Below, piece by piece: positions 48,001 through 51,523 of a DNA stretch of 51,523 bases (position 1 is the stretch's first letter; each line of letters starts with the position of its first letter). Below the pieces are notes generated by a model. That model saw only the letters and a program-made list of their open reading frames with translations, made no database searches and was not told where the DNA came from. The stretch is from Promethearchaeia archaeon (GTDB lineage Archaea > Asgardarchaeota > Lokiarchaeia > Sigyniarchaeales > SOKP01). Both the position numbers and the translations under genes were made by a program. The DNA is taken from assembly GCA_029856105.1 (NCBI GenBank), contig JAHQWH010000034.1, forward strand, positions 1 through 51,523, written 5' to 3'.

Positions 48001-48347
48001 TGCTGAAAGCATCTAAGCACGAAGCAGATCCCGAAAAGAGTCATCCAATCTTACTTCATATTGTTCTTGAAGCGAGTCGATTATTTCGTTTAGTTGGGTT
48101 GTTAAGGTCCCCCTGTGAGGACCGGACGATGACCTGCTTGCGCGTGTAAAAGCGCGTAAAAAGAAAAGGCTATAAGCGAAATGTTTGGCGCGCGGAGAGG
48201 CGAGAGCGGGGCGCGGTGACGCGAACCGTGGGAGCGAGACGAGCGCACCCGTAGAAGACGGGTTTGGTGAGATGGGGGTGTAAGTGCCGAGCTTTCGGGC
48301 GAGGTATTCAGCCCGCCATTCTCAACAGCGCAAGTGTGTGGCATTCG
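45013..48347 (+). rRNA. rrl: 23S rRNA with large expansion segments (ends approximate)
   Basis: Conserved motifs AGTAACGGCGAGCGAA, GAGTAACTATAACTCTCTTAAGGTAGC, GACGAGAAGACCCCGTGGAG, CTCGATGTCGGCTC, SRL AGTACGAGAGGAAC. Confidence 0.98.
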
Positions 48348-48359
48348 AAAGAGGAGCTC

Positions 48360-48380
48360 AAGGTTCAGGCTTAGAGTGAA
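48360..48380 (+). other. 3' strand of the pre-23S BHB processing stem
   Basis: Complementary to 44982-45002, with AGA bulge. Confidence 0.88.
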
Positions 48381-48472
48381 TCGAATTGTGTAGAATGTTA
48401 GACGATAATTAGTTTCGAAATTGAGAGGTGAGATGAGTTAAGTATGTTATATATTGTAGAGGGGGTATGTTC

Positions 48473-48506
48473 TGGAGTTTTACACTCCAAATTTTTTCTT
48501 TTTTTT
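48473..48506 (+). terminator. Hairpin plus T-tract, probable 23S terminator
   Basis: TGGAGT-TTTAC-ACTCCA followed by long T runs; retained in repeat copies 2 and 3. Confidence 0.65.
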
Positions 48507-48522
48507 ATTATAATTAACAAAA

Positions 48523-48696
48523 GTGAAACATTTTGGAATTTTGTTTCACAATTTTTTTAATTTTTTTGAATATACAATAATAAACAAGTTATCATTCTTT
48601 CTATTTTCGCAATATATATTTGAATTTCCGATAATTTTACCATTGATTTGTGGAATGATTCTCATTATAGCGGGTAAAATGCTAAAGAGATGCTGA
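48523..48696 (+). pseudogene. Possible remnant or small membrane protein (57 aa)
   Basis: GTG..TGA frame ending FPIILPLICGMILIIAGKMLKRC. Confidence 0.3.
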
Positions 48697-48752
48697 TGTT
48701 TATTACAAATTTTATAAGAAAGTTCCCTTTTTTCAAATTAAATCGAAATTTC

Positions 48753-48781
48753 GTTTCGAAGTTGAGAAGTTGTGTTCCGGA
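48753..48781 (+). repeat. Highly decayed trailer repeat fragment
   Basis: GTTTCGAAGTTGAGAAGT..TGTTCCGGA versus GTTTCGAAATTGAGAGGT..TGTTCTGGA. Confidence 0.5.
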
Positions 48782-48792
48782 TTATAATTTTA

Positions 48793-49395
48793 TTATTTAG
48801 GATGGTCCCTTCCAAGCGTTGAATAAATTTGAAAAAGGCGTAAAAACATTACTCGCTTGGTTTTTCTCACAAATTCTTTGTTTCCGTAACGTCCTGAATC
48901 GAAAAGCAGTTCTTTGTTATTAGGGAGTATGATGATTACCCGAGCGGTTGTCACAGATGGCCTTTTATATCCTCCTCTTGTCGTATGGATACTTCCTTTA
49001 GCGAGGGTTACATTTTTCCATTCAAAGTAACCCTTTTTAGTCACTCTTCGATAATAGACTCCTGAGGGACTAATAACAACAAACCATCGTACAACAGAAA
49101 TGCAGATGATAACAACGAAAATTTCTACAAATGCAATTGCGATTGAGAACGATACCAAAATCATTATGCGATATTCTTCATCTATATCGAGGAAAAAATA
49201 CATTATTGCAGTTATCATCGGAACAAATACACAAAGGAGCCAAATTTTCTTAGTACCCTTTAAAACAAATATTTTCCCATCCAAGAACGCTTTTTCAATT
49301 TGCTCCCCTGTTGCGTATTTGCCAAATGTGTATTTTCCTTTTTTATAGCTTTTAAGAGCCTCTTTTAATTCTTCTAGAGTGTTTGGATTATCCAA
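48793..49395 (-). CDS. Two-TM membrane protein with putative PH-like C-terminal domain
   Basis: TTG start with AGGAG upstream; two TMs then VVISPSGVYY..FEWKNV. Confidence 0.8.
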   Translation of the reverse strand: MDNPNTLEELKEALKSYKKGKYTFGKYATGEQIEKAFLDGKIFVLKGTKKIWLLCVFVPMITAIMYFFLDIDEEYRIMILVSFSIAIAFVEIFVVIICISVVRWFVVISPSGVYYRRVTKKGYFEWKNVTLAKGSIHTTRGGYKRPSVTTARVIIILPNNKELLFDSGRYGNKEFVRKTKRVMFLRLFQIYSTLGRDHPK

Positions 49396-49413
49396 ATTAT
49401 TCTCCTCTTTAAT

Positions 49414-50049
49414 TCAAAAATTAGGTGGTTCAAATCTTCCTAGTTTACTGTAATTATAATAACTGAAAAATGAGAAAAAGGTCATTGCATCAATTTGTTG
49501 TCCTCGAATGTTTTTAGGGAATTCTTTTGTGGTATACTCGATGTTTTCTAAAAGGTCGCCGTTTGGCATTGCAATATGGATTACCTTAATTTTTGATCTT
49601 GAAATTTCCGATGTTTCTTCAACAATGTCGATACTAATATCTTTCCACTTACAAGATTTAATATCTCCCACATTCAATTTGTAGACTATACCTTCTGCGC
49701 CAAGAACTAAAAAGTTTGGGCGAAGATGTAATAATCCTGGAATCAAAAATCTAAGACCAAGTGGAGCAAAGACATAGATTGGTAGAAGGCTGATCAAAAA
49801 GCCATATAGAGTAAAAGTGAAAAGCTCTATGCCAAAAAAGGAATAAAGACTTAGTACAACAATAAATCCTATAGAAGTGAAAATTAATCCCAATATAATT
49901 TCTATTTTCACACCTGCTTTAGTAAACACCAATTTTTTTCCATTCTCTACTGCTTTCCTAACATCATAATGTGAAGTTATGGTCCCGTATACATAATTCC
50001 CATCTTTATAATTCTGAAAACTTTCGATATAGTCGTTTAAATTTTCCAT
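49414..50049 (-). CDS. Two-TM membrane protein, paralog of 48793-49395
   Basis: YKDGNYVYG, KAVENGK, LVLGAEGIVY..KWKDI, YTTKEF align with the neighbour. Confidence 0.8.
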   Translation of the reverse strand: MENLNDYIESFQNYKDGNYVYGTITSHYDVRKAVENGKKLVFTKAGVKIEIILGLIFTSIGFIVVLSLYSFFGIELFTFTLYGFLISLLPIYVFAPLGLRFLIPGLLHLRPNFLVLGAEGIVYKLNVGDIKSCKWKDISIDIVEETSEISRSKIKVIHIAMPNGDLLENIEYTTKEFPKNIRGQQIDAMTFFSFFSYYNYSKLGRFEPPNF

Positions 50050-50261
50050 TCTTATCAGATTTGACCTTTAAAAAGAAATTATAATAGCACGAAGTAAGAT
50101 TTTTTGAATAATATAAAATATGAATCTATTTATATTTTTCAGATCAATTAGCAATCTCTTTATTAAAATTCTACAACAGTTTGGTTTTTACCCTTTTTAT
50201 ATATTTCCTAAACACCTAGAAGGTTATATACTTCAATTTTTTATATTTTTAGAAAAAAATA

Positions 50262-50561
50262 CGAACCGTGGGAGCGAGACGAGCGCACCCGTAGAAGACG
50301 GGTTTGGTGAGATGGGGGGGGGGTGTACGTGCCGAGCTTTCGGGCGAGGTATTCAGCCCGCCATTCTCAACAGCGCGAGTGTGTGGCATTCGAAAGAGGA
50401 GCTCGAGGTTCAGGCTTAGAGCAAAAAGATTTGTGCGAATGGCAGACGATAGTTTGTTTCGAAATTGAGAGGTGAGATGATTTAAGTGTGTTATATATTG
50501 TAGAGGGGGTATGTTCTGGAGTTTTACACTCCACATTTTTTATTTTTTTTATTATTATTAA
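50262..50561 (+). repeat. Repeat copy 2: duplicate of 23S H99-H101, BHB half-site, trailer and terminator
   Basis: Near-identical to 48222-48376 (G5 to G10 run, few substitutions), more diverged in the trailer. Confidence 0.95.
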
Positions 50562-50620
50562 ATTATTTGTGACCATTTTATAGTTAGGTTTAGATTAAGG
50601 TATAATTTAAAACCTATAGA

Positions 50621-51232
50621 TTGAATTTTATGAAAAATTATTTACGGTTGAACGAGAAAAATATAGTTAAATATAAGAATGAAAACAACTGGCAAGGAAA
50701 CGGTATTGAGGCTCACGATCCTATTATTATAAATTCGATTAATCCTCATTATCATAGATTAAAACTAAAGAATTTGAACAGATTTATACAAATTTCGGAC
50801 CTTTCTTTAGACTACATCTATTTAACTGGTTGTAGAAATATTCAAATAAAGGAATGTAAATTTAATCAATTTAATTTGACGTCGTGTCAGCGTATTGAAG
50901 TAAGGAATAATATCCTTCCTGCCTTTGTTCTTCTTTTTAGTAGAGACAATAAGATAATAGGTAATGAAATATCTCAAGACTCTTATGATATTGTAAAAAA
51001 TTCGTTAGATGAACACCACGATGATAAAGGGCTATCTATAGTATTAGGGATAATAGTTATATGGATGCTATATAATTTCTCATATGATCTGTGGATATGG
51101 TTTTTCTATTCCCTCATAGTATTCGGAATAGTTATCTATTTTAAAATTAGAAGCAAAATTCTCATAAAAAGAGCTAATACTTTCCCAAATAATATTTTTA
51201 GGAATAACATAAAAATTCCAACAGAAATATGA
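50621..51232 (+). CDS. Membrane protein with short beta-helix (NosD-like) repeats
   Basis: WQGNG..DPIII, LTGCRNIQIKEC / LTSCQRIEVRNN repeats, two C-terminal TMs. Confidence 0.7.
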   Translation: MNFMKNYLRLNEKNIVKYKNENNWQGNGIEAHDPIIINSINPHYHRLKLKNLNRFIQISDLSLDYIYLTGCRNIQIKECKFNQFNLTSCQRIEVRNNILPAFVLLFSRDNKIIGNEISQDSYDIVKNSLDEHHDDKGLSIVLGIIVIWMLYNFSYDLWIWFFYSLIVFGIVIYFKIRSKILIKRANTFPNNIFRNNIKIPTEI

Positions 51233-51302
51233 TTTAAATAATTTTTTTAGTATAATTAGAAATTTTCGCGAAGAAAGGTAATAAGGTGAAATCGCGCTAG
51301 TT

Positions 51303-51396
51303 TGGCAGACGACACATGTTTCGAAAATGAGATGTGAGATGATTTAAGTATATTCGGGGGTATGTTCTGGAGTTTTACACTCCAATTTTTTATTTT
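51303..51396 (+). repeat. Repeat copy 3: trailer and terminator only
   Basis: TGGCAGACGA..GTTTCGAAAATGAGATGTGAGATGATTTAAGT..GGGGGTATGTTCTGGAGTTTTACACTCCA-T tract. Confidence 0.9.
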
Positions 51397-51523
51397 ACAA
51401 AATTTACGACTTGAACCGTTATTTTAGCAATGTTTTTATTATCTACCTTTACCTTACATACAATGTTATGTTTGATGGTATGAAAGCTATTAAAGGCAGC
51501 TTTTTGATTGGGCTACTTCTTGT

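Follow-up and report, generated by a model that had tools for sequence, protein, structure and literature searches.

Organisation of the 23S rRNA locus

The window, i.e., the whole stretch of 51,523 nucleotides that was analysed, contains the features listed in Table 1. The trailer of the functional 23S end (copy 1) and that of a displaced end further downstream (copy 2) each give an RNA duplex of −91 kcal/mol with the leader. The 23S gene has a large expansion close to its 3' end, at about 48047-48240, which we take to be ES39, and strain differences are concentrated at 48135-48200. When the leader and the 23S gene were taken in 150-nt stretches, none besides the 3' end had a second match in the genome at E 1e-5.

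Table 1. Coordinates of the 23S rRNA gene, its tail copies and the cargo between them.
Feature	Positions	Strand	Description
23S leader	44872-45008	+	pairs over its full length with the trailer (predicted processing stem)
23S rRNA gene	45014-48345	+	stand-alone; Rfam RF02540, 2553 bits
Copy 1 (functional)	48222-48517	+	final 124 nt of 23S plus trailer, with a terminator-like 6-bp hairpin and T-tract
Left edge of cargo 1	48499-48587	+	intergenic piece; 92% to G015:C111, 88% to G019 and G078
57-codon frame	48523-48696	+	one hydrophobic stretch; weak evidence
Vestige	48754-48794	+	eroded trailer end, type of another lineage; 36/41 to the working trailer of L187, E 1e-7
Cargo 1 gene A	48793-49395	−	200 aa, two predicted membrane helices
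Cargo 1 gene B	49414-50049	−	211 aa, predicted membrane anchor, distant paralog of gene A
Copy 2	50262-50561	+	displaced 23S tail (from −124) and entire trailer; sharp junction 50261/50262
Cargo 2 gene	50621-51232	+	about 200 aa, C-terminal membrane segment
Copy 3	51268-51396	+	decayed mosaic trailer; clear match 51303-51396, start probable
Cargo 3 gene, start	51411-51523	+	161 aa, about five predicted membrane helices; runs on into C157

The first-pass annotation described the 23S 3' end and its trailer as direct repeats, and the alignments confirm this. The alignment of copy 2 with copy 1 spans 301 nt at 92% (E 1e-121), that of the clear part of copy 3 with copy 2 spans 107 nt at 82%, and copy 3 carries the diagnostic bases of the copy 2 type, as had been claimed. 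The vestige suspected at 48753-48781 was likewise borne out, on slightly different bounds, by its similarity to a relative's working trailer. The junction of copy 2 recurs in an independent metagenome contig. Copy 3 probably reaches back, in decayed form, to about 51268; at a related locus (L186) its junction is kept and its 3' half is different. Beyond the window, the genome has more tail copies: copy 4 at C157:526-592 (contig C157 shares 127 nt with the end of the window) and, on contig C89, a strong and a weak co-oriented trailer copy. On C157, the cargo 3 gene is followed by copy 4 and then by cargo 4.

A misassembly of strain variants could be suspected from the short-read bin, its 6% contamination and the contig break 127 nt past copy 3. 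This explanation is scarcely credible, however: the independent contig carries 47905-51516 in the same order at 99.3%, the copies are 77-92% alike, and a relative with a single-contig genome (G038) has four copies inside an N-free 40 kb.

Every cargo protein of the window has predicted membrane helices, and a Pfam search of this cargo gave no family above the cut-off. The earlier description of unrelated membrane-protein genes between the repeats needs one correction: genes A and B are distantly related to each other (23% identity, E 2e-6). As leads only, gene B may contain a PH-like domain, and the N-terminal part of the cargo 2 protein may be beta-helix-like. The 57-codon frame is possibly a gene remnant. 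Pairs of the A/B type also occur at non-rRNA loci (G000 C19, G008 C4 and G013 C186). In G047 and L187, the cargo 2 gene immediately follows an intact 23S trailer, whereas in G000 it stands as an orphan behind a displaced tail. When the cargo was compared with close relatives, as had been suggested, its content was found to vary, and two sister species are without the window's cargo.

Arrays in related genomes

With the window's locus counted, same-strand copies of the 23S tail or trailer lie behind the gene at 19 of 62 Lokiarchaeia loci. Arrays are common in g12, and none was seen in g14, g17, g18, g21 or g22. Matches to the trailer model number 193 on the same strand versus 1 on the opposite strand, and the genes of the arrays are found in both orientations (127 plus, 98 minus). 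A tail occurs about every 1.1 kb. Distances in G102 and G104 were left out because these genomes, though listed as one contig, are N-gapped scaffolds. The cargo across relatives, which includes LRR, TPR, zinc-ribbon, beta-helix, GNAT and other proteins, is far wider than membrane proteins, and the same blocks are found in different species beside different neighbours. Small accessory-gene blocks stack behind the 23S gene in many relatives, each bounded by a cut-down tail copy, and ordinary recombination between related cells, not an integrase, apparently added them.

The copy nearest to the 23S gene is frequently eroded, and several genomes have isolated copies remote from the gene. Some of these remote copies, together with the 3' end shared at the T-tract and the variable 5' ends, would fit retrocopies, in which 5'-truncated, reverse-transcribed 3' ends of pre-rRNA are inserted in the chromosome. 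We regard this as very improbable, as the copies cluster behind the 23S gene on one strand and a reverse transcriptase was found in only 1 of 5 genomes. Furthermore, the 3' flank of a copy is the flank of the working gene in relatives, and therefore the cargo, not the copy, is the insert.

Allele mixing, junctions and age order

Relative to the working copy, the pooled copies have 176 changes in 992 positions of the variable trailer versus 87 in 1387 of the conserved tail (p 3e-18, a value that is overstated, as pooled p-values here are, because the genomes are kin and not independent). At the window's locus, the numbers are 13/97 in the trailer and 4/150 in the tail (p 0.002). Despite 14 changes, copy 2 equals copy 1 in its pairing with the leader (null −74 ± 6, p 0.005). 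Its tail differs by three changes, one of which is a new change in copy 1, and it carries two tail alleles absent from three sister species. The flank of a copy in one genome corresponds to the flank of the intact gene in a relative for G064/G076 (94%), G074/G077 (86%) and G000/G047 (78%), and likewise for G057/G115. Shared alleles were counted in 50 of 106 cases versus 21 expected, a signal that transfer and retained ancestral alleles produce alike. By the leader pairing and the distribution of changes, the copies once worked as trailers in other lineages and are not decayed duplicates.

The allele distribution also bears on repair within the genome, in which the DNA would break close to the terminator, a purine-rich and heavily transcribed region, and template-switch repair would copy outside DNA, return upstream and duplicate the tail, with allele differences arising later by gene replacement. 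The copy of G064, which does not differ from the genome's own 23S gene between −27 and about +80, would fit such repair. The left edge of cargo 1 fits as well: this non-rRNA intergenic piece, which lies behind unrelated genes elsewhere, overlaps the T-tract of copy 1 by about 19 nt, possibly a microhomology join. This course of events nevertheless seems unlikely, given that the tails of G086 and G075 are unchanged while their trailers have 17/84 and 12/82 changes, that cargo 1 has its nearest homologues in other species (75% and 72%) versus 69% in its own genome, and that blocks are common to several species.

Eight young copies, 96-100% identical to their own gene, have eight different starts from −129 to −9 relative to the 23S end. 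Four of them are 100% identical, and their starts (−129, −55, −27 and −9) are without a shared motif. Part of the scatter is later erosion (G055 versus G134). The two junctions with an identifiable source (G117 and G015), the sources being 84-93% relatives, interrupt a gene where about 4-6 bases are shared; microhomology is readable in these two only, the remaining junctions being decayed or without a source. For the cargo of G064, the source search turned up relatives at no more than 67-72%, which leaves its junction unreadable.

In 5 of 5 arrays, the first long copy shows the lowest divergence, which indicates with moderate strength that the newest block sits closest to the 23S gene. In 8 of 9 within-array pairs, divergence is higher at the greater distance, a trend that speaks against the opposite polarity, in which the downstream tail and cargo would come from the donor, with the homology anchor in shared downstream genes, and a broken end in the tail would join resident DNA. 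The two copy 2 alleles absent from the sister species would agree with this polarity, and the copy flanks that equal other species' working flanks fit both directions. We consider it distinctly unlikely, since it also leaves a break preference for the 300-nt tail, and a tail every 1.1 kb or so, unaccounted for.

The first-pass annotation had compared the repeats to the target duplications of a tRNA island and allowed for an integrase acting in trans or lying beyond the window. The proposed check for a nearby tyrosine recombinase was run: a search for PF00589 in 11 genomes found none near the arrays and no IntI beside an attI site, a search for serine recombinases (PF00239) found none in 5 genomes, and no integrase was among the top 25 cargo families listed. 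Apart from the 6-bp hairpin, the trailers fold no better than shuffled sequences (z −1.1 to −1.4) and form no attC-like long imperfect hairpin. A site-specific recombinase in trans, such as a housekeeping XerA or an element integrase, might insert circles at the 23S end, the scatter being erosion; the architecture does resemble tandem ssrA islands (PMC3146451), and XerA-sized proteins were found in 10 of 10 relatives searched. This is quite improbable, however, in view of the trailer fold and of the perfect young copies that begin at four sites without a common motif. The integrase options do not fit, because the junctions are scattered and no recombinase lies near the arrays. The wording "target duplication" is not supported: the copies share no fixed crossover point, and two functional alleles that differ have been brought together instead of one sequence being doubled. 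We rejected the reading as an integron, for lack of a nearby integrase or attC fold, as retrocopies, since the cargo is the insert, and as a misassembly, since the independent assembly agrees.

A displacement model and its known counterparts

Repeated addition at the 23S 3' end, as first proposed, is supported, as are cargo that varies among close relatives and the lack of an integrase near the arrays; of the three options then offered, homology-facilitated recombination is the one that fits. On balance, the locus is probably best explained as a terminal-displacement array that has the 23S gene as its anchor and works without a recombinase. The sequences show how the arrays are built, with cargo that varies, junctions that scatter, alleles that are mixed and blocks that are reshuffled, whereas the donor route, the enzymes and the identity of the donor-derived copy are inferred. 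In the first step, DNA of a related cell with a 23S tail or trailer and the genes that follow it would pair with the resident tail, which, as the most conserved DNA adjoining the variable island, would be the pairing site. The donor trailer and genes would enter, and their far end would join by short microhomology in the last 160 nt of the 23S gene or in the trailer, leaving the 23S gene whole and displacing the old tail with its old neighbours downstream. In the second step, of which the products are observed, the co-oriented tails would serve as homology arms, presumably for a RadA-type enzyme, so that crossovers inside them would add, swap, reorder or lose blocks via linear or circular intermediates. 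In the third step, which the copies themselves show, old tails decay through point changes and deletions.

Several observations weigh against this model: microhomology with a source in two junctions only, the sources being 84-93% relatives; as regards DNA uptake, DprA in 1 of 5 genomes; the part of the junction scatter that is later erosion; the remote isolated copies, which the model does not account for directly; and the often eroded nearest copy, for which multi-block donors are needed.

A bolder and rather unlikely extension is that the rRNA tail, beyond offering the best homology at hand, is an actively used capture site through a hitherto unrecognised host activity, e.g., breaks at the long purine-rich trailer or terminator, and serves as a dedicated, integrase-free capture and shuffling platform across Asgard archaea. 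If true, this platform would feed LRR, TPR and small-GTPase-like genes to these archaea. The displacement model itself would provide a concrete integrase-free route for gain and reshuffling of accessory genes in Asgard archaea, at a locus usually considered inert. Orphan tails would be a record that marks past acquisitions in rough time order and preserves old trailer alleles. Orphan 23S and 16S tails also have practical consequences for Asgard bins, in that assemblies can break at them, rRNA counts can come out too high and contamination checks can be misled.

Homology-facilitated illegitimate recombination usually deletes recipient DNA, whereas the visible products here retain the duplicated tail, and a DNA-uptake route in Asgard archaea would have to be assumed. 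According to summaries of the process (PMC6382021 and PMC5361080), it is described for Acinetobacter, S. pneumoniae and P. stutzeri. Our model would share with it a single homologous anchor, a single short-microhomology join and no dedicated enzyme.

A literature search, mostly without subscription papers, found no description of rRNA-tail arrays. Their closest counterparts are the arrays formed by C-terminal displacement at rhs loci (Jackson et al. 2009, PMC2935791) and the Vibrio T6SS effector-immunity arrays (PMC5361080), where an intact conserved gene is likewise followed by co-oriented 3' fragments of itself, variable in length, with variable genes between them, no integrase and alleles of different strains. 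For these, homologous recombination via circles or homology-facilitated illegitimate recombination has been proposed as the origin (PMC2935791 and PMC5361080). A module on the intact gene in one genome and an orphan in another is also common to both, as for cargo 2 (G047 and L187 versus G000), G076/G064 and G077/G074. In contrast, the anchor here is a non-coding rRNA tail with its processing trailer, the anchor product is unchanged, the host is archaeal, and the cargo is general and accessory, in both orientations, instead of a toxin tip with immunity. Terminal displacement, known from toxin loci of bacteria, would thereby gain an rRNA gene as anchor and a general cargo.

Tandem islands at tRNA and tmRNA 3' ends, such as the Dehalococcoides ssrA islands (PMC3146451) and the additive flexible islands of Methylophilaceae (PMC10872708), also have direct repeats of a stable-RNA gene 3' end that partition a variable downstream island. 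Their repeats have a fixed length of 20 bp and stem from a single insertion point, and many ssrA islands carry an integrase module, whereas those of the 23S arrays span 40-300 nt with scattered starts and no recombinase. Integrons similarly hold blocks of one or two genes that are reshuffled between co-oriented repeats, but the 23S arrays have genes on both strands, rRNA-derived repeats, no nearby integrase and no attC-type fold. In SAR11 HVR2, between 23S and 5S, rRNA was proposed as the conserved homology for exchange of the neighbouring island (PMC2217521); that island is replaced between two rRNA flanks and lacks repeats, whereas the 23S arrays are additive, with one anchor and orphan tails.

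Repeats and alleles behind the stand-alone 23S gene

The window belongs to a source bin of 3.66 Mb in total, and its order has members assembled as one contig, of 4.36 and 6.04 Mb. The 23S trailer, of about 150 nt, pairs with the leader and ends 3' in a 6-bp hairpin and a T-tract. Junction positions are numbered from the Rfam-defined 23S end. The two displaced tail copies described by the first-pass annotation were recovered where it placed them, together with the diagnostic bases that they have in common, and its vestige matches a relative's working trailer at 36 of 41 positions. 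Contig C157, which shares a 127-nt overlap with the window end, bears copy 4 and two further membrane-protein genes; a direct repeat unrelated to the rRNA tail lies there 3' of cargo 4.

Coordinates of features (G000, source bin; C34, window)
Feature	Location	Strand	Remark
16S end	G000 C34: 322		Rfam
Three tandem A/C-rich repeats	G000 C34: 44812-44871		20 nt each, upstream of leader
23S leader	G000 C34: 44872-45008		pairs with trailer
Stand-alone 23S	G000 C34: 45014-48345		Rfam
Copy 2	G000 C34: 50262-50561		start −124
Copy 3	G000 C34: 51303-51396		
Direct repeat	G000 C157: 1548-1696, 1770-1917		149 nt, 92%
Non-rRNA repeat of C89 array	G000 C89: 954-1061, 15140-15210, 17047-17143, 19910-19997		
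23S-trailer copies within C89 array	G000 C89: 6805-6914, 5525-5579	minus	one strong, one weak
Isolated 23S-tail copies	G074 C28: 150647; G008 C26: 126272; G066 C1: 31077; G064 C37: 40754; G134 C2: 289123, 289869		away from contig ends, not adjoining 23S
16S 3'-end repeat	G156 L202: 351-470 vs 5074-5193		~4.7 kb downstream; 89% identity across 122 nt
16S 3'-end repeat	G153 L201: 551-629 vs 5349-5427		~4.7 kb on, 97% over 79 nt; contig end, uncertain
DprA gene	G008 C3: 77822-78373		within island downstream of 23S

An independent metagenome contig, retrieved by the cargo-1/copy-2 junction, matches 47905-51516 at 99.3%, and its differences lie mostly within the 23S expansion, which indicates another allele and not the same assembly re-read. 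Copy 2 has 10 G in a row at 50314-50323, versus 5 in copy 1, and the independent contig is one base shorter at this run. The expansion varies within the species, as a near-identical strain (L200) differs at 48135-48200 by nine substitutions or small indels. The alignment to 47480-48050 is about 571 nt long in G000, G100, G017, G009 and G008, and about 542 nt in G022, G085, G120, G069 and G068, consistent with a patchily distributed insertion, about 29 nt in length, near 47753-47800. In several relatives, the alignment to this region is split at about 47860, in an intron-like manner.

In the neutral decay of a duplicate, changes are expected to be evenly spread. The pooled differences between copies and working genes number 176/992 in the trailer versus 87/1387 in the tail, for which p-values are overstated because the genomes are kin. 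The corresponding values are 17/84 and 0/154 for the G086 copy, and 13/97 and 4/150 for the window copies. The leader pairing is −91 for the trailers of both copies 1 and 2, versus −74 ± 6 after random changes. G009, G100 and G008 share copy 2 variants in their working trailers, and G017 shares those of copy 1. The concentration of changes in the trailer, the kept pairing and the recurrence of variants indicate that the copies are working alleles of related lineages.

Distribution among relatives

The 23S-tail array is real and widespread. The 23S ends were located in 150 genomes of the order, up to 20 kb of downstream DNA was taken, and loci with at least 3 kb downstream were counted (n = 62 from 59 genomes, source genome included). 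The first-pass annotation had proposed counting copies in relatives; at least one copy of the locus's own tail or trailer lies downstream of 23S in 19 of the 62 loci, and loci with copies occur in five genera of the source family and in a second family. Refined trailer models gave 193 same-strand hits versus 1 opposite, where the best copy set the orientation of any locus lacking a 23S gene. In the source family, the control 16S end occurs once per genome, except where a contig end splits or doubles the match.

The copy-rich arrays of G117, G012, G108 and G131 hold 10-16 copies in 13-20 kb. The median length of an array segment is 1.1 kb, and most segments contain 1-2 genes, on either strand (127 plus, 98 minus); among the cargo families are zinc-ribbon, LRR, TPR, beta-helix and GNAT proteins, and small GTPase-like proteins by sequence inspection. 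The suggested comparison of close relatives showed cargo 1-4 to be absent from the sister species G009 and G017 (23S 97%), in both of which the shared backbone (contig C145) is reached about 3 kb past 23S; in G012 it is reached only 38 kb after 23S.

PF00589 has no match in the source bin (92% complete). The nearby tyrosine recombinase that the first-pass annotation advised seeking was not found in ten relatives either, as all of their PF00589 matches, XerA-sized or other, lie on other contigs or 2.4 Mb away (G038). Among five genomes, no resolvase-type match was found, and reverse transcriptase and DprA each occur in one. No attC-like fold was found in the trailers.

Behind a thermosome gene of the source bin (C89), a second accessory array is partitioned by a non-rRNA repeat, which suggests that the array-forming process is not limited to rRNA. 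The listed 16S 3'-end repeats belong to other families of the class.

Junctions and order of events

The 3' ends of the copies coincide with the terminator, and the 5' starts are scattered from −154 to +135. For eight copies with 96-100% identity to the 23S gene of the same genome, the starts are −129, −128, −124, −110, −107, −55, −27 and −9, with unrelated flanks. Erosion accounts for part of the scatter among old copies, judging from G055 and G134, but poorly explains why four perfect copies each start at a different position. Among junctions whose upstream DNA could be compared with a copy-free homolog, two interrupt a gene, with about 4-6 bases shared at the join, and a further one lies immediately after a stop codon. 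The left edge of cargo 1 is a 90-nt intergenic piece that overlaps the T-tract and is 92% identical to a piece behind an unrelated gene in G015; both cargo 1 genes have homologs at non-rRNA loci, which indicates that microhomology at the left edge is a further way in for new genes. No remnant extends beyond about −160, a limit that may reflect the hypervariable upstream expansion, long-repeat instability or short-read assembly.

In four cases, the DNA behind an orphan copy is that behind an intact 23S in a relative, and cargo 2 adjoins 23S in two loci (G047, L187) and is second or later in the window, L191 and L186; these observations alone do not fix the direction of addition. The age gradient helps here: among long copies, the one nearest to 23S is the least diverged in 5/5 arrays, with 8/9 pairs concordant. 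Eroded copies closer to 23S, such as the vestige, fit donor pieces already holding old tails. Reshuffling is visible in recurrent blocks with differing neighbours (F16-F17, F34-F35, F91-F57, F61, F143). L186 keeps the copy 3 junction with a different 3' half, and its first trailer has the 11-nt deletion of copy 3, a pattern that points to crossovers within tails.

On balance, we favor an insertion anchored by homology and completed by microhomology, which would displace the old tail, after which homologous recombination between tails would shuffle the blocks. The stand-alone 23S is highly conserved DNA whose 3' flank is free and dispensable, and each event would spare the 23S gene and a working trailer. 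This mechanism leaves the isolated copies in G074, G008, G066 and G134 unexplained; the G134 pair flanks one 137-aa gene, present also in the G055 array.

Comparison with known systems

The literature search found no account of 23S-tail arrays, and the rRNA and repeat passages of the circular Heimdallarchaeum genome paper do not describe them (PMC8813620). The array fails the defining tests of an integron and of a tRNA/tmRNA island (PMC3146451, PMC10872708), and is unlike the SAR11 replacement island (PMC2217521). In architecture it matches rhs C-terminal displacement, where core fragments of variable length lie downstream of an intact gene (PMC2935791), and the Vibrio T6SS immunity arrays, for which homology-facilitated illegitimate recombination has been invoked (PMC5361080).
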